From Asterionella formosa (Eukaryota), in NCBI GenBank assembly GCA_002256025.1, contig NKIB01013611.1, forward strand, positions 1 through 54,806: a stretch of DNA of 54,806 bases, read 5' to 3'. Below, piece after piece: positions 7,211-54,806 of this stretch. The translations under genes and the position numbers were made by a program. A model generated the notes under the pieces. The model saw only the letters and a list, made by a program, of their open reading frames with translations, did not search any database and was not told where the DNA came from. Numbering within the stretch: the stretch's first letter is position 1; each line of letters begins with the position of its first letter.

Positions 7211-7330
7211 TACAGTAATCTGTAGGTTGATCCAAAGTTTGCCTGATTCTCTACTTATCAATAGATCAATTAATAGTCCATTGATATTTTCAAATGACTC
7301 TTTAATTTATGAGTACTGATCCAGTTGACG

Positions 7331-7443
7331 ACAAATTTGCTGACAACAACAAGAAATTGCTGACTATGACTAGAAATTGCAGACTATGACTAGAATTTGC
7401 TGACTACAAATAGAATTTGCTGACTATGACTAGAAGTTACTGA
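7331..7443 (+). repeat. 20-bp minisatellite, block 2 (about 5-6 units, consensus TAGAAwTTGCTGACTATGAC)
   Basis: Directly visible tandem units with 20-bp period. Confidence 0.9.
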
Positions 7444-23656: not shown

Positions 23657-25776
23657 TCTTAGTATCATCACTTGTATTGAATTTGCATGAAGCTTACCTG
23701 AACAAATATAAGAGGCACTGGTAGTTATTGATTTTCTTTGGCAGTTACCTGGATCTGACAAAGTCAAGTGTTGCACAGATTTACATTCCTTGAGATGGTT
23801 CACTTCCTAGCAGACGAATCCCCCTAATAGGGTATATGAACTTGCACTTTGCATTTAAACACTTAAAAAATAACCAGTACCTGGAGTATGAAAAAGGAAG
23901 TTGACATTTGTTCAAAGGTTTTGTAGAATTTTGTAAAATAACATGTGCTGATGTGATGTTTGGAGTAAACCCGAAGGTTCCAAACATGATTTGCAACTCA
24001 TCTGTTACTTTGAATCTAAAATATGCAATTGAACATAAAAATTTGGGTTAAGCGTTTTTGATTAATTCTTGCATGATGGGCAGATGGGGTAAATTGCATT
24101 TTTTTGTTTTGACCAAATGATGAAGGAGACTGAGTGGACTTGATTATGTTCGTGGGATGAGAAGCAATAATCCTGTGAACAGCATGCATTACGAAGCTGC
24201 AAACAAAAAATATTAAAAATTAAAAAAAGAAATAAATGGTGTAACAACATGATCAAAATTACTTTTCTGTGTAGCTAGTAGCTAAGTGCAACAATACATG
24301 AATTCTTTGTGGAAAAATCGCTCCATGAGCATACATGTGGATGATAGTAGGGATACTGAATTTCATTCGACAGCCTACATACTGATGCTTTGGCATGCAT
24401 TTTATTTTTGGCAATGAGAACGAACAAGAAATAGGTGAAAAAATGTGGAGCATGTGTTTCTGAACAAGAAAATGTTTGTTCATGCAGACAAATGGCAAAT
24501 AATAGCTGGCAATTAAAAATGATGTTAGATAGCTTATGATCAATCTAAGTTCAAACATGTTTCATTGAAACACAGCTTCATTCACCATTGAGAACAACGA
24601 CAACTGTGTTCCTAATATTGGTCTATTCAATGACATTCTTGCTAAAATCATGCTACTAGCTACTAATCCAGCCACTGCTACTCAATGTTCGCCAGTACAT
24701 TGGTAGAAGCCTCACTGGCTGTTGGCTGAAGCAATTACACTTTTTAGTAGTTGGTAAGTTTTCCAATCATGATGTCAACTTCGGCAGCACCATCATTATT
24801 GTTACTGTTGATTATTTTTGACACTTATGTCCTCCTGTCGTTTTTCTGGAAGACAGTGGATGATTCAATATGGAGGAATGGCATGGGAGGTGACTAGATG
24901 CTGGGCATGGAACAGGCAGGAAGAAACACGTAGTCATCAACTGTTGATCAACTTACTACTGCATCTTAGATGTATGTATCACCAGCCAGGATCAGGGGGG
25001 AGGAGGGGGGAATTAGATTTGGAAGATAATTGGCAAGTCTGTGGTCCCATGCAGTGTTGGCTGACATCCAACAATCAACAACTCGGATTCTTGAGGAGGA
25101 CTCCATGAAGTGTAGTAGATATAGGGTTTCTACTGTTGACTAGCACCCTCTAGCTGTTTCTTGACTAGCAACAATGACGTCTATCATCCTGGATGTGATT
25201 TGGTGTAAACAAACAGCAAACAATTCAGATGTTGAATACCATTGTGAGTCTGAGGTTTAGCCACCAAAACAAAGGGGCCTGAAAACCTGCTAAAAATTGG
25301 TAAACTATCAGATAAAATTGGGAAACTAAAATAACCCATGTGCTGATGATGGCTGCTGATCAGCCTCTGTGGCTGATGCATTCATTGGCTGACTGTGTCT
25401 GTGGAAACGAAAACGAGCGAATGCACACAATTCAGCTGCATCAGTCTGGACGACGACAATCAGACAACACGGTATCATGTACTGTGTATGATACCGGTAT
25501 TAGGTGTTCCAGGTACTACAGGTACTGGCAGCACACCAGAGGATCCTTCTTGAACGACAATCGAATCAAACAAATACGGACCGGTCCGAGCGGTGGGTTG
25601 GCATCTGCATTTTCTCCAGCATAACTGTTCCCCTGTAAATGATCCACTCTTTGACGTCGGACCAAACGGCTTTGTTACTATCTCACCTGCCGTCATACTC
25701 TCGAGAAGCGACGCAGCAACGTAGTTGATCTTCAAGCTCATCCTAGTTCCGATACATCACAATTCTTTTGCATCAA

Positions 25777-27621
25777 ATGAGATCTTATTCCTTGTTCGTT
25801 GTCGCCGTTCCGCTGAGTTGCGCTTTTTCGCCATGTCCTCCGCTTGCCACCTCGTTTGCTAAAGACAGAAAGCAACCTTTTTATCTCTTCATGAGTGAGA
25901 GTCAAGATGGTGAGGTTCTGCAGTCTCTATTCGCCAAGCAGTGTGATCCTGATGGTCTCATGACAAAGGAGACTCTGACTCAAGTGCAGTCCATCTCAGA
26001 TCTTCTGGTACGTTTCTTAGGATATCTGGGAAAGAAGTTGAGACTGCCGCTGATGAAACAAACATGCTCTAGAATTACTCCGCGACAATGCAGGATAATA
26101 CATTTCCAAAATGAGGCGGTCTCAACACTGTGTTGAACTTTTGGTTTCATTTACAGCAATTCAGTATGTGCTCACAACTGCTCCTTCCACTTTCGTCAGG
26201 CTGAAGGTGATTTATTACCAGAAGAACTTGAAGATATCTGGAATGCAGCGCCAAAATTTCCTACTACAGACGATAGAATAGATGTTGACTCCTTCATCCA
26301 AATCTATCGGGATATTGATGACTTGTTTGATGACGGAGAACAGGCTGCGCCTGTTCCTGCCCCAACTCAAACAATGGCCGAAGCTCCCGTCACAGAAGAT
26401 GAAGAAGACCCAGATGAGCAAGACATGGCGACTGTGTTTGCTGGATTATGCGACAATGAAGGTTTGGTCTCGAAAGAGTCTCTTCGCAACTGGGACGAAA
26501 TACAGGAGCTTATCAATGAGGGACTTCTGGGTGAAGATGAACTTGACGAAATCTGGACGAAAACCATCAAATCACCTGGATCCAATAATCGCATTGATGT
26601 TGAAGGTTTTCTATCATTGAATGTTGCACTAGATGAATTGTTTGTCTTTGATGAAGACGAAGAAGCAGGTCCGGCACTCGATGCTGCCACAGAAGTTGCT
26701 GCAACACGCAAACCTGTTAGTGCTCCTGCAAAACGTGAAATGGTGTCGGGAGCAGATTTACCACCAGGTGTACTCTTCGCCGCTCTAGCGAACGAAGATT
26801 ATCTTGTTGGGATGAAAGAATTGTCCAAATGGCAAGATCTTCAGGATATGTTGCGAGAGGGAGATTTATTGCCAGAAGAACTCTTGGATTTGATGGCAGC
26901 CAACGCACCCAATGGACTGTTGGACGAGGCTGGATTTGTTGCCGTTTACGAGGCTATTGATTCCCTCTTTGAAGACACATCCACTGAAGGTAGCAAAATT
27001 GCTTCTGCAAAAGGAGGGCTTCTGAATTTCCTGAGTGCTCTCAACAACGACGATGATCGACTCCCATGTGGTCTGGAATGCACGGACAGGGAAATCAATG
27101 AAGTTATGAGAATGGTTACCAGCTTGGAAAATGAGAACTCCAATGTTGTTCGTCGACGACAAGGAGATATTCGACTGAACGACTTGACAGGAAAATGGGA
27201 ACTGCTTTATTCAAGTTCCTCGGCCATGAAATTCAACAAAGGTCTTAGCGGGCTTGGCGGTAGCTTTCCCAATGGCAAGTTTGCTGGGCTTACCATGCTT
27301 CTAACAAGTAGCAAGTTTATGAGTGATGTAGAATACTTGGAACGTATTGAGGTCAATCCGTCTTCAGCGTCGTTCGATGTCAAGGTCAACGGGGACTGGG
27401 GGCTTCGAAAATCTGTTTCCTTGTTCACGGGAGAACCTTCCACGGTTCTCAATGTGGTACCAGAACGCGTTGAATACGGACCCACTTCAACGAGAGCTGA
27501 TCACTGGAAGTCGCTTGGACCTATGAACATGCTAGATTTGACTTATCTGGACGATGATCTCAGAATCATGAGGGGCAACACTTCCACGGAGAACATTTTT
27601 ATCTATAAGCGAGTTTCATGA
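25777..27621 (+). CDS. Plastid-targeted protein with three EF-hand-like repeats and C-terminal PAP/fibrillin domain; exons 25777-26007, 26200-27621
   Basis: Signal peptide + SCAFSP; LTGKWELLYSS and LTYLDDDLRIMRG are fibrillin/lipocalin motifs; three ~75-aa acidic repeats. Confidence 0.85.
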
Positions 27622-27693
27622 GCTAATCACTGCTAGTAACGCTATGATGTACTGTTATGCAAGCCATTGTACAATGCTGCGGCAAACGCCAGT

Positions 27694-28677
27694 CTAGGAA
27701 GTGAGATTTTGCGCATCGTCCTTACTAACTTCTGGTTGACTTTCAAGCACTTCTCCAATTGGAGTCTTGTGCTTGGATGCCAATACTGACACATCCAACT
27801 TTGATGCCAAAAGCCACGGAACAATTTTCCCTAGGGTCGATTGCTTCCGAACCGTCAATAAATGATCCATTGTGCCATAAAACTGAAATTCAGGTAAATA
27901 AAGTGCCATGTAAAAGCAACGCATCACCTTACAGATAAATCGCTGGAACTAGTATGTACAGGTCAGGTTGGTTCGCACAATTTTGAAACATCCAGGGTTG
28001 ATCCTTGCCCAAGAATCGATCCTTATTGGCATCTAAAGGCTCATAGTATGTCTTGGTCCGTCGCAGAAGTCCCTCTTTATGATGAAACCACCACCAAAAT
28101 AGTTTTCCTGAATCAGTTGTCGCACATCTAAAAAGATACCCTGCTTCTTTCTGAGATTTTAAGGGAGATATCGAATCATGCGCTTGTAATAAAGCAAAGG
28201 GTTTCGAAGATAACCCATGTCGACCCAAGCAAAGAAATCGGAATTAAAAATAATTCTCAGGAATTGCAAGGTCCACAAGTCACAAAGTGGCCTTTTTCAT
28301 TCCAAACAATAGATGTACTCCACCTGGTACCTGGACATCTAGTAAGGACCTAGTTAGTACCTGCAAGTTGAGGTAATTGTGCTGAATATAAAGATTTAGC
28401 TTCCTTTATCCCATATTATTAAATTGTTTATTTAGGCGAAATTACCGTAATATAGAGCAAAAGTTGCGATAAATATGATGAAGCGACGATTTGGACATAA
28501 ATTAGTAAGACATTCACCCCAGCCAATCCAATACTTAAAGAAATACTCTCGCCGACTCATATAAACGTTATCTTCCATTCGTGGCATCGCTGATCTTTTT
28601 GAACCGTTTTTCCCTGGAATTCGATTCAGCCGGAAATATTTAGTATAGTGAAACTCAAAGTCTTGAAACTCAAACAA
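27694..28677 (-). pseudogene. Possible disrupted or multi-exon gene of unknown function
   Basis: Three consecutive minus-strand ORFs, two separated by a stop and 1-nt shift at 27928-27931; no family recognised, no clean splice model. Confidence 0.25.
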
Positions 28678-29341
28678 GGTAGTTTCAACCTGTAATTCTA
28701 CTTATACAGACAATTTAGGTAAGGACGAAGATGGCTAAGTGAGTAGCTCTGGTGATATTATCAGAAATGCGTCAAAACATTGGTTTTGATAACGACAGCA
28801 TCTTCCTAATCGGGGACGAGGAGGCAAGTTTGCGCGTCTACAACTCTGCCTATATGGTGGTATATACGGCTATGAAGGAGAAGAACATGAATGTCTCGAC
28901 GAATACTGGACAAAAACAATATTCCGGACCAAGGCATAAATTTGTCCAATGTACGCCTGATAAGTAGAAAAGGTCGATGACTTCTGGTAGTGTGGAGTAT
29001 TGCCTAATACCGGCATATATCACTGTTGAATATCGGCAATCTAGAAGTACAGCCAGCATCGTGATTCATGCTCCTTTTGTCAATGCAATACAGTACTGTC
29101 ATACTGGTTGTCGCTATTGGCCACTACTACCGGCTAGGGTCCAACAGGAAAACAAGAGGATTAATCCCCGCATCATATTACTCGGTCGCCTCTTCGGAGA
29201 CATCCGTGTGTGTCCAACCGGTTAGATCATTTTGCATAACTCGGTTAGATTCCTGATTCGTTCCTTCCTCTTGCATTGATTGCCGAGCGCACCGTCAGCA
29301 TTGACGTGAGTTATATTTCGGTACTAGTGTAGTCTTGAAAT

Positions 29342-32300
29342 ATGGGTTTGCCGAAGGAAGGAGCCGTCGTTGATGAAGACCCTTACGGAAACTTTTCATA
29401 TAATGATACCAGACGGGCCCATGAAGATGACGATTCATCCTCGAGCTCATCAAGTTCAAGTAGCAGTGCTTCATCAGCAAACTACTCGTCGAATTCCCGC
29501 TCAGAATCTCAGTCGGAAAGTTCGCACAGCGAGACATCTCGAAGTGAATCCTCGCGAAGTGCAACTTCCCAAAGTGAAAACTCCTCACAACACGTAACGA
29601 CGAGCCCCAGTGAAAGCAGTTCGGGCAGTGCAAGTGAAAGCTATTCATCAAAAAGTCGGTCGAGCGTGTCAGAGAGTGATTCAAACAGTCTGGACAGCGA
29701 GGACTCAGAGTCTTCTGACAGTGAATCAGAAGAAAGTGGTTCGCGAAGGTTGGAGAAAGATGACAACTACGATGGGAAAAGTAGTCGATCGGGAACTTCA
29801 GAAAGTGTGTCGGAAAGCGAGTCGGATTCTGAGTCGTCCAGCCCATCTGAATCGTCATACTCAGAGCTAGAGGAAGACCCAGTCGACAATCGACGAAGGG
29901 GCACGCGTTCCGAGGGCAACAAGCCTGAGCTAAATACCGGTGATTCACCGCGTGGATTCAGCGATGACTACAGAGACCACTTAGGTTTTCAAGAAGAATC
30001 TCCATCCGGGTCAACCCCGTACGATGGAGAAGGTCACGATGGTCGACGGTCCCTGGAGCGAACTATTTCAAGTGACCAAGGTGGCGTTCCTCTTAGACGT
30101 GCCCAATCGCCGACTACAACTGTCTCGTCACTCAGTGCTTCACTGGTTACTGGTGTTTTTAGCATGTCCCAAGCGAAAAGGCGTACTCATCACGACCATG
30201 ACGACGATGAGGACACCCTGGATGAAGAGCCTGTTGTCAAACCTCACCGTCGGAAACGTCGAGGACAACGCTCTTCTGCACTTGATGAGCTCGAAGCAAA
30301 TTTGGCAGAAACGATGAGTGTCCTCACACCAGAAGAAAATCGGAAAACAGTTCGTGAACTTGTTGCCATGAGAGAAAAAGGGGAGGGGTATGATCGTGGC
30401 GAAAGTGTTGACGTAACCACTCACACGTCTCATCATTTGCTCCATGGATTTGAGGCGCTGCTTGGTGCCCTGCTCCAGCTATCAGATGAACTTGAGTTGA
30501 TCAGTACCTTTGGTGGTGTCACATTAGACGGGCAATCTACCGTGGTTAGTTCCGATGCATTAAATGCAGTATTGAGTCATGCTCCAACTCTCGATCAAGT
30601 ATTCACTTCACTTAAGCCAATTCTCCAAAACTACCTAGAAGAGGAATCTGACGATGAAATGGATCATTTATTAGGACGTGCACAAAAGCTCGTCCGCCTT
30701 TTATGCGAAATTACTTACCGTGTCTGTCAACGGCAAGAATGGAATCCACGAGCTGAAACGGCATATGTGACTCTGCTTGAGCTACTGGAAAGAACAACTT
30801 TGGAAATTGCATGCGTGTATGAAGATCAGTCTGTTCCGGAATACCAGCTGTCAGGTAATTTGCGAAGAGCGTGGGCTGCGACTGGGCACGTGGAAGAGTT
30901 GAAAACACTGTATGTGACCAATGATACTTGGCTTTTTCGCCAAGTATGCTACGAAGTGTTGGTATCAACAGATCAGTGGTGCCCCAATACTCGTGATCTT
31001 GGGTCGGTCTGCGATGTAGCCAACTCAGTTATGGACGAAGAAGCTAGTGTCCCTGATCCCGAAGCGCGGCTAGCACCGACACCTCAGGCTGCTTTGCAAG
31101 TCTTGGACAAAATAAATGGTGAACCCCTTCTGCGATCATCAATGATGGCGTCGATTTTGCGGCGCATCCTTCCTCCGCATGCTATGACAGACACAGCCGT
31201 TTTGGACAGCTTTTCTTCCATTAGATCAACCATTCGAAATCCACTGGGGCTCTCTGGCACTACCAATACAGTTGCAATTTCGTCGATTTCCGAAGACTTA
31301 AGTGATCCCAAGGCGATGGGTATGGCTGGAGTGGGAAAGACAACAATGGCTGCATTGGTAGCCAGGCATTCTGACGTCCGGCGATTTTTTAAGGATGGTA
31401 TCGCATGGGTTCATGTAGGGAAGGAGGAGTTGGACTATAAGAGATATACACAGTGTTTGCGCGAGTTGGTAGCTCAATTGGTCTTTTACGATGGCGATCC
31501 CCTCTTTGCTGAGCTTTTGCACACTCCTGGTGAACCGTCGTCTAAGAGGAAGCGACGAGAAGAAGGCTTTATGATTTACGCTCGCGATACGGTGACTGAT
31601 CTCTTGCAAATGAGAAATGTGCTCGTAATTCTTGACGACATCTACTATGAACAAGACCTAGAATGGTTTCATTTCATCCCGCAGGTACCCCAAAAATCAC
31701 GTCTATCGAAGAAGAAGGAGGAAGCTTTTTCATCAAGTCTTTTAGTGACTACGAAAATGAGAGACCTCTTACCAGCTGCGGATACTGTCGAAATCGATTT
31801 GCTTGAAGAAACAGATGCTATTAAACTCCTGGTAACTGAATCTGGACAATCATCTGATCACGTGATGGCATCATCGAAGGAAGCGCGACAGGTCGTTCGC
31901 GAATGCGCCAACCACCCGTTGGCTGTTAAAAGTGTTGGGCGTTGGCTGTCTCTGAAGCATGCAACCGCTGGAGTGATTAGTAGTGTGGAAGAAATTCACG
32001 AAGATGTTGTGAAATCGATTGACAAAATTTTGAATGGAACAGATAAAGAATCTGATATGATTTATGAAATTATGGGAATGAGCTTTTCCCCAGCAGTCAA
32101 TGGTCAACCGACAAATGTGATCAAGTTTTGCTTTGCTGCATTTGTACAGGTTTTCTGTTGTGAAAAATATTTGTCGGAGTTTACTCCGTCGAACACCCCA
32201 CCAATGGTTCCGTGGGCAACGGCTGCGCTGCTTTTTGAAACACTTTTGGAGATGGAAGAAGAAACATTGTTCCAAGAAGGAAGTCTGTTTTATTCTCAGC

Positions 32301-35110
32301 GAAAAGAGGCTACAATTCTCATTCCAGAAGCCCTTTCTGCCCTTGGGGTTTTGAAGCTAATCACCACGTACGAGGAAGACGACGATGAATCTGATGACAA
32401 CTCAAGGGGAAGCCTTGGCGAAGAAAGGTTTCTGCAGATCATGCATGTCATTCAACATGAGTATGGGGAATATCTTTCTACTGAAGAAAAAGGAATGAAG
32501 GAACTTACGCACGATGCAGAGCGTCGATGGAATCGAGCCTTCGTCGAAGCTTACATGATGCAAGCCGAAGATTGGGATTCGGAACTTCCTGATTCGTCAC
32601 GTGATTATGCGTTAGAACTTCTCGTCTCGCACATGCTTCGAGCTGAGATGTTCGCTGAAGCCGCTAAATTGCTGGCTGACGAGAGCTTTGTGAGGGGCCG
32701 CATGCTTGCACTCGGCAGGGAAAACGCAACCCGTCGTCACATCAAGGACTGCGAACTTCTTTACAAGCTCGTATCTGTAAAGGTGGAAACAACGAGAGTA
32801 TCTACCGATCCAAGAACAGCAATGATTCGGGCTTACGAAACTCTAGGAAGTCTGTTGAGGACGGAGGGTGCAGGGAACAATATAGAGGAAGGACGAATGC
32901 TCTCCATCGAGGCTGGTCGAGCACACTACGAGATCGGTTTTTCTCTTTCCGAGAAACGATGCTTGGATGCAGCAATCGCGCATTGGGAGAGTAGCCAGGA
33001 ATTGCTTCTCTCTTCTCTTGGCATGGTCGAGTTTGTGGCTGCAATTTTATACAATGTTGGAGTAGTGTACGCTGAAATGAACGAATACGAGCAAGCGCTC
33101 GCGTCATTGAAGCAGTGTCTTCGTATTCGAGGAGCCATCCATGGAGAAGAGCATATTCTCTACGCTCAGACCATTCAAAAAATTGGTGACGTCTTTCTTG
33201 GTATGAGTGACTACACTGAAGCAATGGAAAGTTACAACTGGGCAATTGATGTGATGCACATTGAACCCAGTCATCATCGAGTTGATATCGGTGATATCCT
33301 TGATAACATGGGCAACACACATTACAGTAAGGGTGAGGTTCCAGAAGCACTACGATGTTATCAAGATGCATTACGATCGAAGAAAGTTGAGCTTGGAGAT
33401 GACCACCCCGAGCTCGCTGTCACATACCAACACATTGGAAACTGTCTCTCAGACCAAGGTGACACCGACGAAGCTATTGCTCACTTTGAAGAAGCTATCC
33501 GGCTGAAGGAGCTAGACCCTGATGGGGAAGCCGAAAGAGATGCCGATGTGCTGTCCATAGAAGGCGTGCTCAACAACTTGACTGGACGACAAGAGGATGG
33601 GTTACTGTGCTACGAAAAGTCGCTCGAAATCTTGGTTACCAAGGTGCCTCATAGAAAGGAAAAAATTGCGGCCTTACTTCACTTGATTGGTTGTGTTCAC
33701 TTAATGAATGGCGAACACAAAAAGGCCATGAAGCTTTTCGAAGAAAGTTTGCAAGCTCGACGAAAAGTCCTTGGCTTTGTCCACTTAGATGTTGCCAGCA
33801 CATTATTCAATATGGCTTTCTTGCATCAAACCCGAAATCGCCTCGACAAGGCCCTGAAATGCCTAGAAGAGGCCTTGAAGATCCGTCAGTTACGGCTTCC
33901 AGACAGTGAGAAGGTTGCGCTTACTCACGAGAAGATTGGCACGCTCGCGAAAGCGATTGGGAAGAGTAAGAAAGCAGAAATATCATTTGAAGAAGCACTG
34001 CGCATTCGTCGCCTAATTCATGGTGATGAGCACGAAGCTGTGGCGACTGTTCTGCATGAAATGGGTGACCTTATGGATGATCTTGGAGAATATGACGAAG
34101 CCATGAACAACTATGTTGACGCCCTCAACATTCGACGAAAACGACTCGGGCTGCACGAAGATGTTGCTGCTACTTTGTATAGCATGGGATTCACGCTTCA
34201 CAATCAAGATCAATCTCAACGCGCCCTGAAGTGCTTCGAGGAAGCTCTGAATATCCGGAAGGCCCGACTCGGTGAAGAGGCTAAGGAGGTAGGAGACACG
34301 CTCAATATGATGGGATTTCTTCAAGCTAAAAGTGGGGAACTAGACAGCGCTCTCACGCTTCTCTGGGACGCGCTTCGCATCCGCAAGGCACACAAAGATG
34401 ATGTAAAGGTCTCCGAGACGCTTAAAAATATCGGCAATGTCCATCGTGAAAAGCAAGAACATGAACTTGCTGTCGAATGTTATGAAGAATGCCTCAGAAT
34501 TCGTCGTAGCGAACTTGGTGACGACCACGAAAAGGTTGCTGATGCGCTCATTGCTATTGGAAACGTCCGCAGTGACATGGAAAGAATAGACGATGCAATG
34601 CGGGCTTATCAGGAAGCCCTCCAGATTCGCACCGTGGTGCATGGTGAAAATGATGAACGCGTTGCTGCCGTCCTCCAGTATATGGGCACAATGGAGTTTC
34701 GAGCTGGTGATTTAGACCGAGCTCGTGCTTTCCTGGAGGATTTCGTTCGCATTCGCAAACAGAACAATTCACAAAATGACGGCGACTACGTCAACGTTTT
34801 GTTCATGATTGGTAATATCCACAAGATTCAAGGTGACGATATTGCAGCTAAGCGATGCTGGTCGGAAGCATATGATGTGTTCCAAGAGCTTGGATTGGCC
34901 AGTGAGAACCCACAGATTGCCCGTGTAATGGATAGTCTCTTGCATGGAAGTAGAAGTACCCGCGCACCATCTCAAAAGCGACCTCCTCAGGATGATGAAA
35001 GAATGCCAAACAGGCCGCCAGGTGGCTTCATTGGTCGTATTACTGCTAGTCTCAAGGATACATTGCGAGAAGAAAAATTGCCAAAGTATTTAGGCCCAAA
35101 TAAGCATTAG
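29342..35110 (+). CDS. STAND NTPase (NB-ARC-like)-TPR protein, NLR-like architecture, 1922 aa, no intron
   Basis: Walker A GMAGVGKT (31319-31342), Walker B VLVILDD (31619-31639), sensor-like LLVTTK, GLPL-like CANHPLAV, MHD-position MHV (32441-32449), then many ~42-aa TPRs; Ser-rich N-terminus. Confidence 0.9.
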   Translation: MGLPKEGAVVDEDPYGNFSYNDTRRAHEDDDSSSSSSSSSSSASSANYSSNSRSESQSESSHSETSRSESSRSATSQSENSSQHVTTSPSESSSGSASESYSSKSRSSVSESDSNSLDSEDSESSDSESEESGSRRLEKDDNYDGKSSRSGTSESVSESESDSESSSPSESSYSELEEDPVDNRRRGTRSEGNKPELNTGDSPRGFSDDYRDHLGFQEESPSGSTPYDGEGHDGRRSLERTISSDQGGVPLRRAQSPTTTVSSLSASLVTGVFSMSQAKRRTHHDHDDDEDTLDEEPVVKPHRRKRRGQRSSALDELEANLAETMSVLTPEENRKTVRELVAMREKGEGYDRGESVDVTTHTSHHLLHGFEALLGALLQLSDELELISTFGGVTLDGQSTVVSSDALNAVLSHAPTLDQVFTSLKPILQNYLEEESDDEMDHLLGRAQKLVRLLCEITYRVCQRQEWNPRAETAYVTLLELLERTTLEIACVYEDQSVPEYQLSGNLRRAWAATGHVEELKTLYVTNDTWLFRQVCYEVLVSTDQWCPNTRDLGSVCDVANSVMDEEASVPDPEARLAPTPQAALQVLDKINGEPLLRSSMMASILRRILPPHAMTDTAVLDSFSSIRSTIRNPLGLSGTTNTVAISSISEDLSDPKAMGMAGVGKTTMAALVARHSDVRRFFKDGIAWVHVGKEELDYKRYTQCLRELVAQLVFYDGDPLFAELLHTPGEPSSKRKRREEGFMIYARDTVTDLLQMRNVLVILDDIYYEQDLEWFHFIPQVPQKSRLSKKKEEAFSSSLLVTTKMRDLLPAADTVEIDLLEETDAIKLLVTESGQSSDHVMASSKEARQVVRECANHPLAVKSVGRWLSLKHATAGVISSVEEIHEDVVKSIDKILNGTDKESDMIYEIMGMSFSPAVNGQPTNVIKFCFAAFVQVFCCEKYLSEFTPSNTPPMVPWATAALLFETLLEMEEETLFQEGSLFYSQRKEATILIPEALSALGVLKLITTYEEDDDESDDNSRGSLGEERFLQIMHVIQHEYGEYLSTEEKGMKELTHDAERRWNRAFVEAYMMQAEDWDSELPDSSRDYALELLVSHMLRAEMFAEAAKLLADESFVRGRMLALGRENATRRHIKDCELLYKLVSVKVETTRVSTDPRTAMIRAYETLGSLLRTEGAGNNIEEGRMLSIEAGRAHYEIGFSLSEKRCLDAAIAHWESSQELLLSSLGMVEFVAAILYNVGVVYAEMNEYEQALASLKQCLRIRGAIHGEEHILYAQTIQKIGDVFLGMSDYTEAMESYNWAIDVMHIEPSHHRVDIGDILDNMGNTHYSKGEVPEALRCYQDALRSKKVELGDDHPELAVTYQHIGNCLSDQGDTDEAIAHFEEAIRLKELDPDGEAERDADVLSIEGVLNNLTGRQEDGLLCYEKSLEILVTKVPHRKEKIAALLHLIGCVHLMNGEHKKAMKLFEESLQARRKVLGFVHLDVASTLFNMAFLHQTRNRLDKALKCLEEALKIRQLRLPDSEKVALTHEKIGTLAKAIGKSKKAEISFEEALRIRRLIHGDEHEAVATVLHEMGDLMDDLGEYDEAMNNYVDALNIRRKRLGLHEDVAATLYSMGFTLHNQDQSQRALKCFEEALNIRKARLGEEAKEVGDTLNMMGFLQAKSGELDSALTLLWDALRIRKAHKDDVKVSETLKNIGNVHREKQEHELAVECYEECLRIRRSELGDDHEKVADALIAIGNVRSDMERIDDAMRAYQEALQIRTVVHGENDERVAAVLQYMGTMEFRAGDLDRARAFLEDFVRIRKQNNSQNDGDYVNVLFMIGNIHKIQGDDIAAKRCWSEAYDVFQELGLASENPQIARVMDSLLHGSRSTRAPSQKRPPQDDERMPNRPPGGFIGRITASLKDTLREEKLPKYLGPNKH

Positions 35111-35778
35111 CTCCTAAATTGCCATGTCAATATAATCATTAGAGCATATCAAATTATGAGCATCAGTTGCAGCGCTCTCCTTCACATCCTTTTTTTATGT
35201 AGATCTGATTGCACTTTAAAAAGGTGTCATGCAAAAGGTACATATGAGGATAGCCTTATGAAGTAGCAAGATGCACATGGCTGATAGCATACATATTCAG
35301 CATCGTACAGAAATCTATCAGAGAATCTTCTTTTACACGTTTGCCAAAGTAAATCATAATATTCCCATGGCCTCTTGCCGAATTAGCACTCTCCAATTTT
35401 TAGGCCCTGCGACATTTCAACCTAATTCGCCTGCCAATTCAGCTGCTGCTTGAGGCGATAATAACGTTTGTTGATTTTCGTGTTGCTGGACATGTTGGAG
35501 GATGGTTGGTGGAGAAAAACAAAGATTGAAGCTAGTAGCTAATAGTACAAGTATTGATGATGCATTATGTCAGTTAGCTAGTATGTGGAATCCTTACTGC
35601 ATCACCACAAAGCTCTTGTGAAATTGTCTATGCATGTTGCTCTAAGCAATCTGATCTGACAATTGACCATTCTGGATTCAAGGGCCCCTTGGACGTTCTG
35701 GTGAGTCATACTATGACTTTGGCCTTTTGGTGAGAAGACAAGGGGACTGCAAAGGATAAGGAAAGGTTGTGAGCAGGT

Positions 35779-36296
35779 TGGGCCTATCAGCCAGGAAGCC
35801 CACCAGATCTGCATTGTGGTGCATGGTGAAAACTGTGAACACATTGCTGCCTTACCAAAGTATACTACGAGTGTAATAGAATTTCGTCCTGGCAATTTAG
35901 ACTGAGTTCATGATTTCCTGGGGCATTTCATTTGTATTTGCAAGCAGAACAATCTACAAAATGATGGTGACTAGCTATGTCTATGCACATCAACATTTTG
36001 TTCATGACTGGTACTATTATTCAGTAGGTTCAATCTGATGATATTGCAGCTATGTGATGGTGCTGGTTGGAAGTGCACAAAGTACACCAATGGCTTGGAT
36101 TGGCCAGTGAGAACCCTCAGAATTCCCATTTAATGTATATTAGTTGCCCACCATCCTCTCAGAAGTGACATGATGTTGTAGTTTCAGTGTCAAACAGGTC
36201 AATGGTTGGCTTCATTGTTGGCCAATACTACCACTGCTGGTCTCTAGGACACATTGAAGGGAGAAAAGTTGCCACAGTTTGTTAGGCCCTAAACAG
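35779..36296 (+). pseudogene. Decayed tandem duplicate of the last ~500 bp of the NB-ARC-TPR gene
   Basis: Colinear with 34601-35105 (gtggtgcatggtgaaaa, cagaacaat, ttttgttcatga, gatattgcagcta, gcttggattggccagtgagaaccc, ttaggccc) but with indels and stops. Confidence 0.92.
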
Positions 36297-36512
36297 TTTT
36301 TCCTATACCTGATGGTACTCTATTTCTATCTCAATACCGGTAAACCACCGGCATCACTTGAATTACTATGAGCAATTTCATGTGATAAAAGAACTACCTT
36401 TAGCCGTCACCGCACAAAAAATGCACAGAAGAGAACCATTATTTATGCATGTCATGATATATTTTATCTGCATCGTGAAATCTTGATTCCGTGTTGTGAT
36501 AGTTTGGCCTCA

Positions 36513-38073
36513 ATGATCGCCATGAAGGGGTCAGCGTCTGTGTTCTTTCGGCGACGATCGCTTCCACGAGGTTGCTATCACCATGTCGATCTCTCCTGTT
36601 TCTTGGGTAAGAATGAGAATGACCGGCAAAGGAGGCAGCGATCGTTTCTAAGCCAACCTCCAATGCCAAGATCATCACTCACCAGAAATGCTGAACCGAC
36701 ATTTTGTTCCACGCGGCCAATGTCAATGATGCCTGATTTCATGTCGAACCTCCACTTCTGGGGCGGTGCCGGCGTTATGATAAAGGCGATTCACTTTAAT
36801 GGAGCCATTCCATATTGGACCTCCATCGCGCTCTTCAATGTTTCGGTCCGAACAGGACTGTTTCCTTTCGTCATTTATTCAGCGCATAACGCATCCAGAT
36901 TCGCCAAAGTGGCCCCCGAAGTGCAGTTCGCCATCACTGTTTTCCAAAACGATTTGAAAAAGAGTCGAGCAGAAGGAACAAGCCCGAAAGAGCAGGCTCG
37001 TCTCTTTCGCCAAGTCCTAGAGCTCATTTCGGGATTATATAAACTTCACAGTGTTAATCCACTCAGTGTATTCATTTCGCCACTCTGTCAGATTCCCATC
37101 TTTTGGTACTTTAGCGTCGATTTGAGAAAAATCATCAATGGAGCGGACCCGGGCCTGGCGCAGCAACTGACTGAAGGAGGCATGCTTTGGTTTCCAGATC
37201 TCACCAACCCGGATCCTTGGTTCGCTTTGCCTGTATTAAGTGGCCTATTGCTATACTATAACGTTGAAGTCGCAGTGGGTAAAGCATCTCTGAGCGGGGA
37301 GGTCGCTAGTAAGAGTAACTTGGCTATGATTTTGAAAGACGCATTTCAGAGTACGTAACGAATGAAGCACCACTGCAGGTCAATACTACGCTTGAACCTA
37401 ATCACTGACACACCCATATTAAGGCCTTGCTATCTTCATGCCGGGATTCGTGTCCCAATCTCCTGCCGGTGTTCAAATTTATCTGCTGACATCGTTCACT
37501 TTCACGCTTTTTCAGAGCTATGCTCTCCGCAGTGACACATTTCGAAAAATCATTGGCCTTCCCCTGAAATCCAGCGAAGTCCCTATTGAACCTATTTACG
37601 CCAAGGGTTTCATCGAATTGAAAAAATGGGAAAAGAAAGCAATAGCAGCATGGGGAAATCGGCCAATGCCTGGTGATGGAATCATGGCCGCAGGATTCAA
37701 GATAGCCATGCCTGGGAGGAAGCGACCTTCAACCATAAAGGGGAGCGGTATTCAACCACTAGACCTTGATGATATGTATATACCAACTCCTCGCATGCAG
37801 ATTCCGCAGCAACATGTTACGTTCATTCATGGTATATCGGCTCCGATTGAAGAAATGCCCTTTGCAGTCACGGAGCCCAAAGAAGAGAAACACGCACCCA
37901 CATTGGTTACGACGATGAATGTTTCAGACTTAGACATGGAGCGAGCGAACCGCGGAGAAGTACCACTCAAGTATCTCAAGAAGATTGAACCAGACGTCAG
38001 ACCCAATGAACTCAACCTTAAACGATTCAAATTACAATCGACCAAGAAGAAAGGAGTTGGGAAAAAACGTTAA
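36513..38073 (+). CDS. Oxa1/Cox18 (YidC family) mitochondrial inner-membrane insertase; exons 36513-37350, 37424-38073
   Basis: PYWTSIALFNVSVRTGLFP, PLCQIPIFWYF, GGMLWFPDLTNPDPWFALP, PAGVQIY; Arg/Ser-rich presequence. Start codon uncertain (36513 or 36522). Confidence 0.88.
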
Positions 38074-39760: not shown

Positions 39761-39879
39761 CAATGGACGAAGCTGTGATGGCGCATTTGGAAACGCTAAG
39801 AGAACGTCATCAACTCTCTCTTTGAATCGACAGCATCACAACTTGTTAGTGATGCAAATAAGTATTAGACGAAAATAGT

Positions 39880-41140
39880 CAAAATGAGGCAAATGGCCGA
39901 AAAAAGAAAATGACAATGACAGGGGCAATAGAGGGGTGGAATGAAGCAAAAGTAAGAAGTCTTGTTAACTTTGCTTTATTCTATCCAAACTCAAAATCAT
40001 TCTTTTTCCGGCCGAGCGAAGCGATGAAAACAACCAATAATGAACGGTTCTATATTTATTAGGATTTGAATATTCATATGCTTGCATCATCATATGTAAC
40101 AACTATTGGTACCTGATATAAGTCATATTTTCATACCACAATTTGCATGTTGGCTGGCTGGACTTATGCTGCTCAAGGTTTTAACTGAGGTAGCACTTGT
40201 AAGCCATTGTAGATTTGGCTTATATTACTCGATTCTTTTGTATATCATGTATGCATACCAGTATAGCACTACGAAATACTGTGTAGTCATCGTGAGCAGC
40301 TGGCGAATGCATGGTGCATCATGTCATGATCTCAGCCTTGACCATGAAATATTTAATTAATATCTCAATGAAAAATGAGAACGACGCTTTGCTATGACTA
40401 GGCACCAAGTACATTTATTAGGCACGATTATGAAAATACAATTGCAAAAGAATAGCTGCAATAACACTAATATTGACAAGGAAAAAAGAAATATCCAATG
40501 GCGCATTTTAAAATGAAATTTATAGATTCACAATTCAAAGCAACAATGTTATCAGCGGATTTTAAAAACTTTCACAGGAGCTGTACAACAACTAGAAGAC
40601 GACTAAAACAATAAAATGATAAATTAAAGCAAACTATTTCAAACAAGTAAATTATTAGTTTGATATGATTGTTTGTATTGAAGATGAAAAAAGGATGTAT
40701 TGTTTCATGGGAATGATGGAAGCATGATGGTGATGAGATTTCAAAAGTGTTTGTTTATCATAGCTATAAGTACTGTTATGCATACTATGTTCTATCTTCA
40801 TTAGTCGACAGTTGACAGTCGATATAGCCAGTAGCATGGTGGTAGCTTACAATTGTAGTATACCTAACATGAATATGTACTGTACATACATAATTTATAA
40901 TCCTACTAGGAAAATTGGGTTGTTTGGTTTGATGGTGCTGGCAGTTACAAACTTCCAATTGCAATGAATTTGAAAACTTTAATTGAGATAGGTTTTTTCA
41001 TCACTTTGGCTGGAAAAAGAGAACGATTTTGAGTTTGGAGAGAATAATGGAAAGTAAGCAAGACTTGCTTACTTTCAGGCCACCTCTCTATGATTGCCCT
41101 GCCGGTCATTGTTGTGTTTTGACATTTCCCTGTTGTTTTG
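39880..41140. repeat. Pair of ~150-bp inverted repeats (39880-40035 and 40991-41140) enclosing ~950 bp
   Basis: Left tattctatccaaactcaaaatcattctttttccggcc...gatgaaaacaacc versus reverse complement of right tattctctccaaactcaaaatcgttctctttttccagcc...gatgaaaaaacc. Confidence 0.85.
40283..40595 (+). repeat. Dispersed repeat family B, copy 2
   Basis: Colinear with 6915-7210. Confidence 0.75.
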
Positions 41141-42759
41141 AAGAATATAATTATTAGGATAAAACAAATTTCACTAAGTGGTGATCATATACTGTAAAAA
41201 AACCTTAGATACCAGCATCCTCCTTTGTACATATGGCGCAATGCTCCCAAATATTTCATGTGTACAGAAAAAATAACAGTGTATTATTGTATTCTAGCTA
41301 TTTGTTAATGTATTTATAATAGAATAGTCTTCTTACCAGTAACCATCTTGAAACGACAATCAACACCAACACGAGCGATGCCAATGACAGTTGCAATAGC
41401 AATACCCTTGGCCTGAGATCTATTTCAAGAGTTGAAGCTGCAAGTTGCAAGTTTGTTGTGACACGATTATGAAGCTGAACACGGGCCACTATAGGCTTAG
41501 GCAGTGCTGGCCTTGATGTTGTCGGCTTGCCGGAAGCGGTCATAGTAATATCCATCACAATCCAAGTCGTAAAGTTTACACAAATTAATATTGTTGTAGA
41601 AATAAGTACAAAAGATTACACACTCTAGGAATTAGTATTGATACCATCACGAAACTCTGGCGCAACAGTGCACCAACAATAGAAATTCTACTGATCAGCC
41701 ATAGAAACCGTTTGTACTTACGACAATATATCTATTAAATATTGCTTTTTTCGTTTTAGGCTACGGATAAAAAGGTGGTGAAGTTGGTTTTTTCACAATG
41801 TTGGTTGATCAGAAACGTACCTACCGGTATATCTTGTATTCCCCTCTTAGTAAAATCAGTCGTGGCTGTGTACATAGAAGGATAGGAGACACCTGGTTTT
41901 GAGGTACCGGTAGACGATTTTAAATACCGGGAGTGAATTTGTGACGTTTTCTATGTACCCTGTATTTTAACGCCTGTCCTGCGTCATATTTTCAATTTCA
42001 GCGAAATGACCGCAACTTGCAGGAAACTGTCCTGCGCGGTTCTTCAGCTGCCTGGTTCTACCAGCTACCAGGTAGACTATGCATACTGGTATAGTAGCAT
42101 TTAATACATGCATTATACTAGATACCGTAGCGGACTACCGGTAAGACGACCGAAGTGATGTCGTCAATCGTGACCTTCGAACTTGAGTGCCAGTTTACCA
42201 ATAAGTGAAGCGAAGAATGCAGCGATCAGATGCCTGCCATCAACGGTTCAATTGAAGTTGCAGATACCACATCCCCATCACTGCGGATACTCTGTTACTG
42301 CCTTCCCCTTTGGAAGACCTGTTTGGAACAAGGAGAGGAGATGATCACTAAGGTGCCAATATGAGCTAACAAAATACCGTGAGTAAGTCGTGACTACTTT
42401 CACCTTCAGGTTCACGGACCAGACTCGTCGGGGGCGCAGTTATCTATGGCATAAAGTCAGTTATACATGAATACACGAAGAAACTGTTATAATATTCTAT
42501 TCATGTAAAATAAATGTTCTATATGATATGTAAATGACAAATTGTGGCTTGTGAAATCTTATGTCTTGTGTTTTCTGTAGCGCAGGTACACTCTAACTTT
42601 TCTTGTTGTTTCTGGAAGTGATTCAGTGGCGAATATTTAGGGCGCAACTGGCGCCAAGCTTGCTGCTCCATAGTATACGGTTGTGCACAGAACTTTTTGT
42701 GTTCTTTTCTTTGTCTCTCTCTATAGCCTCTATTTATTCGATCATTCGAGCCTGTGATC

Positions 42760-43143: not shown

Positions 43144-44166
43144 TATGATTGCCACGTTGCTAATCAGAAAGGATTCTTCGAATGATTTCTTGCTTTTGTG
43201 AGAAAAATATGATTTTGGGAAAATTTGTGCGGCGCGGAGCGACGCAGCCTGATGAGACTCCACTTTTCTCGTTTAATTCGTCTGTGTTCTCATTCAATGT
43301 GTGGTGATAACGAGGCACTTGTACTGACGGTAGATTCGATTTCATGAGATTTGAATCCACCAATATTCACTCCTTAGAAGGCTATGTTCGCTACTCGTAC
43401 GTAAATTGCCTTTGAGAAAAATTGTATATTGCTCCGACGAACTCGATGTGAAAATGCAAAGAAGTGCAGTCGAATTCGTCCGATGAATGGAATCTTGACA
43501 GTACACAGTACCTGGTACAAGTACCAGGTACTACCGGGTATTGGTGATAGATTCGCTACTGCCCGTTTCAACTTGGTGTTACACGATTGCCAGTACGTCC
43601 TTAGGCAGAAGTATACCGGTCTACAGTAGTAGCAATGTACTTGTGTACTCACCGGCACATACCGGGACCAGACCTACCAGATACAATACAGGTATACCAG
43701 TAGCGGTTACCGTCAGAGAATCAAATCATTGCTTGTGAAGCACATGATTCTTGTTATAGCTGACGTCACTGACAGCATCGATGTCACCATTTGAAATCCG
43801 ACGTGATGGTTCCTTGAGCGCGCATTACAACTCTCAGGAAGTAAAGAAAACTGTAGAACATATACTATATAGTTTCTGTACGTCAATCTGTGGTTGATTT
43901 TGTCCGTATTTTTCCTAACGGCCAGTTCAGTCAGCAGCGGTTTTCGCTTGCTTCCGCCGTGATTCATTTTTTCGGCCCCTGCTTAACGGAAAAATGTGGA
44001 TGATTTTCACCGGTACCAGGTACCTGGTGGAGAGTTGAGAGTACGTACTGGTACCGGTACAGGGTACCTGGTACTGTGTTGTCAAAGTGAGCTCTTCATC
44101 TACCGGTACCGGTACGTAGTTATGACTCGCAGTCGACTGAGTCGACTTTTGATGTACGTGGTACCT

Positions 44167-44460
44167 CACATGATATTATTCTGCTATAATGAGCCGGACA
44201 AAATACCGGTAGACTATTTGGAAGACTGATAGTTTGAATCAAACGATCAATGGTTATAAACCTATGATCAATAGGTGTGAGATAGACATGGGTCTATCTA
44301 TGAATTTATGTTCTGACAAATGCAAACAGCATCTGGAGAAATAGTTTGTTTGATTACTCAAACTGAACAAAACCAACTAGTTTGCTTAGTAACTCACAAT
44401 AAGAATCTAGAAACAAATGTCTCTATCTATTGTCTTCTTTGTCAAATGATAGATCTATCA
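44167..44460 (+). repeat. Dispersed repeat family A, copy 2
   Basis: Colinear with 5827-6108. Confidence 0.8.
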
Positions 44461-44897
44461 ACTAAAAGGTAATACTTTAACACCATGTAGTAAATTAGAG
44501 GTTGTGTGGGCAGACCAGGTATACCAGGTAGAGTACCTTGTACCAGTAATACAGGGAGAATCTGGAATTCAAGGTCCTCACCAGCATAGAATTACACAAT
44601 TTCAGCCACCATCATGGAATGGCAGAAAATAACATTCTGTTCTCCGCCTGCTCCGCGCTGTCATTTCTTCTTTACATTTCTACTAGGTACTTCCATGCCG
44701 CTGGCAGGCAAAAAATGGCTTTTAGTTGATGGTTCGTGACTATCAGCCTTCTGAAAATTAGCCAACTCAATACTTGCTGCATTGATTCGTCAATCGAGCT
44801 CGTTCACGTGGACTAGTCTATTGAATCGCCTGCTTGCTATACTGCTTAACTCCGCAAAGTTTCAATACTTTCTTCCTCGCAGAAGCAAGCCTCAAAA

Positions 44898-46476
44898 ATG
44901 TCCGAATCCGACGAACTGGTCTGTCAGTTTATGGCCTTCTCTGGCTGTTCTGATGCTGAGCGTGCACAGTCGTATTTGGAAATGAGTGGAAATAATCTTG
45001 AGATGGCCATTTCCTTGTACATGGACCACTCAAGTGGAGGTGGAGCCGCGGATGCTGATGGCGACGCTGGCGTTGCTCCAGGCTTGTCGGAAATACGAGC
45101 TCCCGACGCGACACAACGAATGCAACTCATGGACGTCGGACTCTCGGGGTATGGAATGCACTTGGCCGACCCTGAACCAGAACCAATGAATATTCCCAAC
45201 GCCTTTGCTATCGATACCGATATTAGAGCCGCCATTAATGCTGCGGTGATGGGAGAGCACTCCAATGATGATGGCGAGGACGACGATGATGACGAGGAGT
45301 ATATTCAAGTCATCGGGAGACCTGTTGGCACTACTGGATTGCAAACTATGTTCTCTCCGCCGACGCACCTCATGTACACTGCGGGAGGATTTCAGGGAGC
45401 TCGATCGGCAGCCAAGGATGCTAGACGGTGGTTACTCGTTAATATTCAGAGCGATGCTGAATTTAGCAGTCATGCTTTGAACAGAGACGTGTGGAGAGAT
45501 GATTTGGTGGAAAATTTGGTTCGAGAAGGCTTCATTTTTTGGCAAACTGTGAGTATTTGATATTAAAATGGAGAATCGTCATATTGCGCGTGACATCGTG
45601 TCGGAGAAGAATTCTCAGAGCGAAACTAACTCCTTGTGTTTCAATTTCACTCACCCTGGTCGTTCTAGTACGACGTTACACCTGATGGCCGGACGTATGC
45701 CCAAAGATACGATGTCCACGATTATCCCCACGTTGGCATTATCGATCCTCGGACAGGCCGCTTATTGTGGAGAAAGGAAGGTTGGACACAGGAAAAGCCC
45801 ATGACAGCTGAAACTTTTGCGGAAATGGCCATGGATTTCTGTTCGCGTCATTCCTTCGACAAGGAACCACAGGCTCCACGAGCGGCATCTGCGAGTATCA
45901 ATAACGGAGAACGAAAGCGTCCCTTCATGACTGAACAAGAACAGATACAAGCCGCCATGGTTGCTAGTTTGAAGAAGGACACAATAACAGACGTTGCCAC
46001 TGACAATGGCGATGGCGATAACGAATACTGCATGGAAGCCGATGACGATGACGAAGAGATTGAATGCTTGGGCACTGAGGAAGAAATGAAACAAGTAGCT
46101 GAACCCGCATTTATTGAAAAGTTATTGGATGTGACTGTACCAGCTGAACCGTCGGACAGTGTTGCTCGTGTGCAAGTTCGCATGCCAGACGGAAAACGGC
46201 TGGTTCGAAAGTTTGCCAACACCGACAAGTTGCTGATAATTTATGCATTTGTGGCGGTAAGTGCTTTTAATTATTATTCACATTGGTGCTAGCATTCCCA
46301 GAATAATCCTAACACCTACACCATTTCGACAGCAAAACAATGACGAGGCCAAAGGCGGCAAAGAGTTTATATTGATGGCTGGCTTTCCTCCCAGGGATCT
46401 GTTGGCTAGACTCAATGACACTGTAGAGTCGTGCAAGTTGGCAGGGGAAGCAATATCGGTCCGATGGAAGGAGTAA
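44898..46476 (+). CDS. UBX domain protein (UBXN7/PUX7-like: UBA-like, UAS, UIM, UBX); exons 44898-45548, 45669-46256, 46333-46476
   Basis: AQSYLEMSGNNLEMAISLY, RWLLVNIQSDAEFSSHALNRDVW, EQEQIQAAMVASL, RVQVRMPDGKRLVRKF, GFPPR; introns phase 0. Confidence 0.92.
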
Positions 46477-46575
46477 AAAGATCATTCTAAGACCCTCTGG
46501 TGTATAACGAAAGGGTATAGCTTGTTGCTCTTTAAAAGTTTTTAGTATCCCACTTGTTTCTGTTATTAGTCAATC

Positions 46576-46752
46576 TTAGTGGCCAACTGACTTGCGTTTA
46601 GGAGGCCCATACATTGTGTACTTGTAAGCATATTCCAGACACATGTACGCTCCGTAGATCACAACCGCTTTCCTTAGGCCAGGGAAGGGATCGTGGTGCA
46701 GATTGCGAAAAACGGGGTGATCTCTCCAGGCATCTTGTCCGCGAAAAACCAT
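46576..46752 (-). CDS. NDUFB3: NADH:ubiquinone oxidoreductase subunit B12 (NDUFB3-like), 58 aa
   Basis: Manual translation MVFRGQDAWRDHPVFRNLHHDPFPGLRKAVVIYGAYMCLEYAYKYTMYGPPKRKSVGH*; the D.WR.HP...PGL + TM pattern is that of B12. Confidence 0.8.
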   Translation of the reverse strand: MVFRGQDAWRDHPVFRNLHHDPFPGLRKAVVIYGAYMCLEYAYKYTMYGPPKRKSVGH

Positions 46753-47226
46753 GATATATTGGAAATCTGTATAGAAACAATGTAACTAGGTTAGTTGGTG
46801 ACCTGGTAGTATTCAAACGGGCGTGTTCTTGAGCAATGATATATGCCATATCGGAGGTTTAGTGCGACAAACAAAAAACTCGAGAATCGAGGTCTGACGA
46901 GCGCTAATGCTCGCCGAGTGACAGAATCGCCGAGTGCTGTGAATTTCTCGATTGATATTTCAATCGTCTCGTCTCCTCTGTTTCTCTTCAGTACATCGGC
47001 AGTAAACATGTCGCAGCATACGGATTGCAATGCTGAAGGAACGCACCTGGGAAAACAGTGGAAAGAACTGATTGTAGGCTGACAACAATTGTTTGTTACC
47101 GGTAGTCAAGTGCTACCTGATGAAAAAGGAACGCCGCGACTTGATAGAACTGATTAACTATTTGCACAGACAAAACATTTATCTGGCACGGAAACCAAAT
47201 AAAAATCGATCATGACATCGAGCGAC

Positions 47227-47242
47227 TTTTGGCGCGCCAAAA
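47227..47242. promoter_or_regulatory. Palindromic double E2F-type site TTTTGGCGCGCCAAAA
   Basis: Perfect 16-bp palindrome containing TTTGGCGC on both strands, ~215 bp upstream of the NASP-like ATG. Confidence 0.6.
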
Positions 47243-47455
47243 TTTCACATCACATCATTTAATAATTCCATTATTTTAGGATACCAGTAATTGATCGTTG
47301 CAGCTGGATCAAAAACTTAAAACGTGCATATGTTCCTGAATCAGCGTCCTGCACTTGCTTACTGTCCTCGTTGTCATTTATTTGATCCTTTCGTGCCTCT
47401 CTTTTCGTGGCTACAGCAACAGTAACAGTAACGACGCAAGACCAAGGCATTCAAC

Positions 47456-54313: not shown

Positions 54314-54806
54314 TGTCTATTGTTCATTAACTTCATATTACAATTGTATGTGGCTTGGAACATAATCTATTGCAACCTAAAGAACCTTAATCTAACTCTG
54401 GCAATAGTAAATACTGGTGTATATTTCACTAGGTAGTTTCAGGCAAAAACACTAGGAACAGAAACTCCCATTGAATATACTGAGAGGTTATTGTAAGCCT
54501 TAACCCAATGAGTCATTTACTCCATCCAATGCCCACTGCTCCTTGACCTTTTCAGTTTCAGATAATTCATCTGCTCCCTGTCATGATAGCAAACTGGTTC
54601 CATTTGATCATCAAAACTTATCTTCATTTTGCTTTTCTGATTCCCAAGGAATGTTTTGTCATCATCCAGTAGACATCAGTCAAATATGACGACATACGAA
54701 GATTCATGAAATTATCAATCAAGTCTTATTGTATGTTAGAGCTATCCAATAATTGCACTCGTGCCCAAATAAATGAATAAATGGACACAATTAGGTTTCA
54801 TTCATC

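Follow-up and report, generated by a model that had tools for sequence, protein, structure and literature searches.

The DNA analysed here is a stretch of 54,806 nucleotides, called the window below. It comes from a pennate freshwater diatom and occurs in sequencing runs labelled as lake-water, freshwater and algae metagenomes. The part of the window that concerns us contains a gene for an NLR-like protein, a second and damaged version of the 3' end of this gene, and a gene for a membrane insertase.

29342..35110, plus strand: the parent gene, a single-exon ORF of 1922 aa encoding an NB-ARC and TPR protein (NLR-like)
34602..35116, plus strand: the source segment of the duplication as delimited by local alignment, comprising the final 169 codons and the stop codon, with about 6 nt past it
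35117..35479, plus strand: the 3' UTR/terminator of the parent gene and spacer, moderately CpG-poor, with RNA contig ends at 35086 and 35157
35480..36337, no strand: a CpG desert with 3 CpGs against 37.6 expected, consisting of the copy and 300 bp of non-homologous DNA
35780..36305, plus strand: the pseudogene copy of the parent 3' end, with 77% identity, five in-frame stops, frameshifting indels and 2 CpGs
36427..37358, plus strand: the first exon of the downstream gene, encoding an Oxa1/Alb3-type insertase (Pfam 60KD_IMP, E=3.8e-9)

The parent protein matches the Pfam families NB-ARC (E=1.9e-19) and TPR_12 (E=1.9e-94). Its named homologues are all from diatoms, with 84% identity to a protein of Grammatophora oceanica over residues 1400-1922. 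Two polyA RNA contigs (5950 and 5953 nt long) cover the gene and end at 35157 and 35086. Thus the parent gene is expressed and conserved across diatoms. Its ratio of observed to expected CpGs (o/e) is 0.98. Conservation of its NB-ARC and TPR parts is very strong in pennate and centric diatoms alike. Such conservation is uncommon among NLR-like proteins and hints at a conserved function in housekeeping or signalling. Approximately 300 N-terminal residues of the same protein (29342-30300) form a serine-rich and acid-rich low-complexity sequence.

Downstream of the parent gene, the region 35111-35479 contains 8 CpGs with 13.6 expected. The Oxa1/Alb3-type gene has a CpG o/e of 1.0. Its RNA contigs, from two studies, have their starts at 36427 and 36468. 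They depart from the genomic sequence at 37351, and this shared loose end points to an intron donor. The neighbouring genes are of ordinary housekeeping types, and a scan of 14 neighbouring ORFs found no transposon or DNMT domains. The window as a whole is gene-dense and TE-free. It also contains a family-A DNA polymerase with a SAP domain (10112-13405, minus strand) and a glutamate synthase (GOGAT) in two plus-strand ORFs, 18784-20091 and 20216-23656, presumably separated by a short intron. The ORF 4137-4973 on the minus strand has no Pfam match, and its GpC o/e is 0.50 compared to about 1.0 elsewhere in the window.

An earlier note on this DNA had reported a duplicate of the 3' end of the NLR-like gene, and local alignment, blastn and tblastn all find it at that place. 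The alignment of 34602-35116 with 35780-36305 has 488 aligned columns and 14 gaps. The pair is recovered by blastn with E=1.6e-53 and, when the parent protein is used as the query, by tblastn with E=1.5e-23 (match 35792-36135). The source is 515 bp long, and the copy begins on the same strand about 660 bp beyond the end of the parent ORF. The two sequences are 77.3% identical; when parental CpG sites are set aside, the value is 80.1% (438 columns).

The homology has well-defined limits. In comparison with shuffled controls, the upstream and downstream flanks score 10 and 14, below the respective 95% null levels of 14 and 15.5. The tblastn search of 35111-36512 with the parent protein gives nothing credible outside 35792-36135, and the spacer has no tblastx match in the window. 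Self-comparison of the window by blastn and tblastx reveals no further gene-derived duplicates. A second C-terminal match downstream of the orthologue was found in none of 17 metagenome loci bearing one, all of them distant (protein identity 38-75%); in only eight does the sequence continue for at least 1.2 kb downstream.

The five stops in the copy result from three CGA to TGA and two AAG to TAG changes, and its insertions are of 4 nt and 14 nt. A processed (retro)pseudogene was considered and rejected, since the homology reaches only about 6 nt past the stop codon and falls short of where the RNA contigs terminate (35086-35157), and no A-run follows position 36305.

The most prominent difference between the two copies is the loss of CpGs. 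When the 24 parental CpGs with both bases aligned are followed into the copy, 11 have become TG and 9 CA, and one each is found as CG, CT, GG and AA. The earlier note had counted about 17 conversions to TpG or CpA among about 19 CpGs in 34601-34870; our recount there gives 16 of 18, and the full alignment 20 of 24. It had also stated that the parent retains its CpGs, and the source segment indeed has 25 of them (o/e 0.86). The copy has two, one retained and one new (o/e 0.085), which is the lowest CpG o/e among the 2172 sliding windows of 526 bp in the 54.8 kb analysed.

The excess of changes is confined to the CG context. Transitions occurred at 21 of 50 parental CpG sites, while the 181 remaining C/G sites have 20 (Fisher p=2.8e-6, odds ratio 5.8), so that in the spectrum by dinucleotide context CpG transitions are significantly above non-CpG ones, and the absence of such a difference, which would speak against hypermutation, was not observed. 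By parental context, transitions were found at 10/76 CpA, 6/52 CpC and 4/53 CpT sites; the corresponding values by trinucleotide context are 3/39 in CHG, 17/142 in CHH and 21/50 in CG. The base preceding CG has no marked effect (ACG 8/14, CCG 2/9, GCG 6/12, TCG 5/15). The dinucleotide CG is kept in one case of 24, whereas retention of the 15 remaining dinucleotides ranges from 44% to 77%. Outside CpGs, the ratio of transitions to transversions is 49:38 and the divergence is about 20%. From the single survivor among 24 CpGs, with its binomial interval, and the non-CpG distances, the rate of CpG transitions is estimated at about 10.5 times the background (range 4.7-23.8). The CpG transition excess is CG-only and strand-symmetric (11 TG versus 9 CA).

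One might ask whether chance similarity, misassembly or an alignment-driven count could produce this picture. However, the E-values of the pair are far too low for chance similarity, and the copy is carried by the DNA contigs of two other studies. The number of TG/CA outcomes per CpG is stable under four scoring schemes (20/24, 20/24, 22/26 and 17/19) and in ungapped blocks (18/20). An artefact is therefore rejected as next to impossible. The DNA contigs of the two other studies span both the copy and the desert at the depth of the flanking genes, and thus the fragment is fixed and single-copy in depth. Near the copy these contigs contain one difference, at position 35759 just upstream. Across two DNA runs, seven substitutions were seen in 3.4 kb, and two of three C>T changes among them (35465 and 37118) are at CpGs, numbers that are too small for inference.

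The direction of the changes is given by seven orthologues (P0003-P0009), which are 79-91% identical over the queried region and allow for comparison of 152 gap-free codons; the closest of them, P0003 (91%), is encoded on a metagenome contig of 20 kb. The parent and the copy have 67 identical codons, 17 synonymous differences and 68 nonsynonymous differences. At the latter, the orthologues agree with the parent in 58 cases and with the copy in five, the remaining five being tied. Hence the changes occurred on the copy and not on the parent. The copy is a dead fragment, and nearly all of the divergence lies on its lineage.

The process was also long-lasting. CpG-creating transitions in the copy are found at 1 of 71 possible sites, compared to 28 of 186 other A/T sites (p=0.0008), and about 10.7 new CpGs would be expected if no loss had continued. 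This suppression means that the hypermutability was sustained, rather than acting as one burst followed by neutral drift. At five positions (34687, 34708, 34869, 34873 and 35019) one sequence has TG where the other has CA, a type of double mismatch that is more frequent here than double transitions elsewhere (5/75 versus 8/374, p=0.05). A loss of several synonymous CpGs from the parent could explain these positions, and so, equally well, could CpGs that appeared in the copy and then decayed.

The depletion is not limited to the copy. The non-homologous part of the desert, 35480-35779, contains one CpG with 12.6 expected, the same o/e as in the copy. In the entire desert TG+CA dinucleotides are in surplus (o/e 1.53), and the GpC o/e is 1.04. 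No other part of the window has a CpG-free gap as long as the one inside this desert (35885-36338, 453 bp). At 36338 the CpG density rises sharply to a normal level, some 90 bp upstream of where the RNA of the next gene starts. The CpG content of other parts of the window is as follows.

All ORFs, pooled: CpG o/e 0.90
8877-10111, intergenic: CpG o/e 0.32
23657-26373, intergenic: CpG o/e 0.50
54217-54806, intergenic: CpG o/e 0.35
27622-29341, non-coding: CpG o/e 0.89
46293-47455, non-coding: CpG o/e 0.96

In the depleted intergenic stretches the TG+CA o/e is 1.37-1.44 and no duplicate was detected within the window; the GpC o/e is near normal (0.83-1.16), and thus it is CpG alone that is depleted. 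The copy is below even the pooled intergenic level: if the local background o/e is 0.37, the probability to observe at most two CpGs is 0.008. Something specific to the 860-bp patch, possibly the duplicate itself, may be behind this extra depletion. Further CpG deserts are seen in non-coding DNA at 24476-25451, 9501-10301, 7176-7726 and 40826-41351, with minimum o/e values of 0.12-0.20 in 526-bp windows. CpG-free gaps of 401 bp (44244-44645) and 385 bp (54305-54690) also fall in non-coding DNA. Three of these overlap repeats that occur within the window, and the rest do not. The further deserts may be other methylated patches, and the pattern as a whole looks like a series of bounded CpG-poor patches, as would be expected of bounded methylated domains.

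Two pairs of non-coding repeats were observed in the window. The dispersed AT-rich repeat 5732-6184 / 44077-44537 is 73% identical over 429 aligned columns and has CG in both copies at one of 11 CpG-involving dinucleotide pairs. The inverted repeat 39852-40092 / 40930-41160 is 78% identical, with arms about 840 bp apart; the arms contain 7 CpGs (o/e 0.98) and 2 CpGs (o/e 0.27), and CG is shared at none of six CpG-involving pairs. With so few CpGs and no outgroup, the two pairs were set aside.

Genes are different from the copy in this respect. In the parent gene, CpGs spanning a codon boundary, where C>T is mostly synonymous, are near expectation, with an o/e of 0.86 (129 observed, 149.9 expected). 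The cross-codon o/e of five further long ORFs is 0.67-0.88. Expressed gene bodies thus escape the tenfold hypermutation. The suggestion of the earlier note that selection on the parent adds to the asymmetry holds for CpGs in arginine codons. However, this can be only a part of the explanation, as the cross-codon CpGs are kept as well.

One possibility is that methylation is not involved at all. Methylation-independent CpG mutability or a repair bias would then set a CpG-poor neutral equilibrium, codon selection would keep CpGs in coding regions, and the copy would merely have drifted to this equilibrium. In its favour, intergenic DNA is CpG-poor in much of the window, and the genes do have a mild cross-codon CpG deficit. 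However, the tenfold, strictly CG-specific and strand-symmetric excess of transitions, with the matching surplus of TG and CA, is the classical signature of 5-methylcytosine (5mC). Moreover, the depletion of non-coding DNA is uneven: 27622-29341 and 46293-47455 are close to normal, and the return at 36338 is sharp, which is better explained by bounded methylated domains. Finally, the cross-codon CpGs of genes are far less depleted than those of the copy. We consider an explanation without methylation unlikely. In the metagenome loci bearing orthologues the non-coding CpG o/e is mixed, about 1.0-1.3 in seven loci and 0.42-0.59 in three, all of these being small samples with more than 300 non-ORF bases each.

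PolyA RNA contigs of two studies (runs X8 and X12) cover both flanking genes, and none of them falls over 35614-36426. This absence is a weak hint that the copy is probably transcriptionally silent.

Taken together, these observations are probably best explained by a silent pseudogene that lies in a CG-methylated intergenic patch and decays by deamination of 5mC. What we infer in this explanation is methylation as the cause, as well as the mode of duplication. The 515-bp 3' piece of the NB-ARC/TPR gene would have been duplicated once, about 660 bp downstream and on the same strand. Having neither a start codon nor a promoter of its own, the copy would never have been functional. The intergenic patch around it (35480-36337) would not be transcribed, and would be CG-methylated now or have been so for a long time in the past. 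Spontaneous deamination of 5mC on either strand would convert CpG to TpG or CpA approximately ten times faster than other transitions occur, so that 23 of 24 CpGs would be gone and new ones also removed by the time about 20% of other sites had changed. The CpGs of the parent would be kept mainly because gene bodies escape hypermutation, purifying selection being secondary. With a tenfold CpG rate and about 20% divergence at other sites, the loss of CpGs is explained without a burst. The earlier note had proposed that the duplicate was methylated and hypermutated with a RIP-like outcome. Of this, the CpG-specific and strand-symmetric transitions on the copy, such as are produced by 5mC deamination, are borne out; the RIP-like trigger is not.

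This explanation agrees with the picture of silent DNA in published diatom methylomes, with CG as the context, repeats and unexpressed genes methylated, and expressed genes free of methylation. Methylation there is described as almost entirely CG and mostly on repeats, and in Pseudo-nitzschia multistriata about 70% of methylated CpGs are reported in repeats (10.1101/2023.10.11.561864). The near-silent genes of Cyclotella cryptica are reported as methylated in 95% of cases (PMC5124317), and in Phaeodactylum the loss of DNMT5a is reported to remove methylation (PMC9998398). However, as these sources present it, unique intergenic DNA of model diatoms is mostly unmethylated (10.1101/2023.10.11.561864, PMC5124317), and thus the broad intergenic CpG loss observed here is not simply predicted. 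Besides, of the five windows in which the CpG o/e falls under 0.25, three overlap repeats that can be detected within the 54.8 kb. This fits repeat-directed methylation and is a point against the explanation given above.

The silencing could instead have been triggered by the duplication itself, similarly to RIP or MIP: the repeat would be sensed and methylated de novo, perhaps via an enzyme of the DNMT4 clade, and then mutated enzymatically or by deamination. The copy is the most CpG-depleted of the 2172 windows and below the local intergenic level, and the overlap of three of the five deserts with repeats points in the same direction, as does the reported concentration of diatom methylation on repeats (10.1101/2023.10.11.561864). 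One study places diatom DNMT4 near the fungal RID, giving its function as unknown (PMC9998398), whereas a later survey of DNMTs, as far as its account goes, confines DNMT4/RID to fungi (PMC12344493). A duplication trigger is nevertheless improbable. The adjoining 300 bp of non-homologous DNA are depleted to the same extent, and so are stretches with no detected duplicate. The parent has no matching damage, 58 of the 68 differences being on the copy. There is no preference for CpA (10/76), and outside CpGs transitions hardly predominate over transversions (49:38). The deficit of new CpGs indicates a long-lasting process and rules out one burst followed by neutral drift.

On the other hand, a MIP-like trigger followed by slow deamination would be compatible with all points raised above against RIP or MIP. 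In such a scheme, diatoms would have homology-sensing silencing in which a duplication of 0.5 kb recruits CG methylation, possibly by a RID-related DNMT4, and the methylation spreads over a few hundred bases, is maintained for a very long time and erases the CpGs of the copy. We regard this more specific scheme as likewise improbable.

The preferred explanation, decay of CG-methylated silent DNA, has close parallels in other lineages. Methylation-dependent CpG decay is known from vertebrate and plant pseudogenes, and the CpG transition rate in mammals is about 10-15-fold. As in those pseudogenes and in silent repeats, here CpGs have turned into TpG and CpA on both strands, TG and CA are in surplus, and the expressed, presumably unmethylated parent is spared. 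The rate, about ten times that of other transitions, and the depletion to an o/e of about 0.1-0.2 are similar too. Unlike the vertebrate and plant cases, the host is a diatom, the depleted patch lies in gene-dense, TE-free DNA, and it is by inference that methylation enters the argument.

In diatoms, methylation is attributed to DNMT5-type enzymes and described as mostly confined to repeats (PMC9998398, 10.1101/2023.10.11.561864). As described for Phaeodactylum, Pseudo-nitzschia, Cyclotella, Thalassiosira and Fragilariopsis, the methylomes resemble the present locus in the exclusive CG context, in targeting untranscribed or repeated DNA, and in sharp boundaries beside unmethylated expressed genes. 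However, those descriptions concern the state of methylation, whereas here its mutational footprint is read from sequence; and the target is not a transposon, but a two-copy fragment of a host gene with its unique flank.

The resemblance to RIP of Neurospora and its relatives and to MIP of Ascobolus consists in a duplicated segment with many C-to-T and G-to-A changes and premature stops. The length of 515 bp is close to the minimum recognised by RIP. In contrast to RIP, the context here is CpG and not CpA, transitions at CpA (10/76) being no more frequent than at CpC (6/52). The parent is untouched, although selection on an important gene could mask damage. Transversions are many, and the process was sustained rather than a burst. 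The repeat and the mutated zone differ in extent, with the qualification that duplicates were searched for within the window and that RIP is known to leak into flanks. RIP proper is thus not supported: only one of the copies is seen to be damaged, transversions are too many for a burst of transitions, and CpA is not preferred.

In the literature searched, mostly by title and outside subscription journals, no description of CpG decay or of a RIP-like process in diatoms was found. Searches by title for mutation accumulation in Phaeodactylum, CpG depletion in diatoms and methylation of diatom pseudogenes gave nothing relevant. In the portions of the diatom literature that matched RIP, it is mentioned only for the fungal DNMT4.

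The locus is a clean natural experiment, with a dated and polarised pseudogene beside its expressed parent, although for any statement about duplicates in general it is a sample of one. It allows the hypermutability of CpGs in silent diatom DNA to be estimated directly (approximately tenfold, sustained and CG-only), and it demonstrates that expressed gene bodies escape this hypermutation. On the present evidence it does not reveal a new repeat-sensing mechanism; rather, a known process can be quantified here in a lineage for which there is little documentation of its mutational footprint. If the homology-sensing route were true, it would be a MIP-like genome defence outside fungi. The composition of the window suggests that methylation in this freshwater pennate species may have covered ordinary intergenic DNA, beyond transposons. 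Finally, the results support the use of CpG o/e maps as a proxy of long-term methylation in those diatom genomes and MAGs that come with no methylome.
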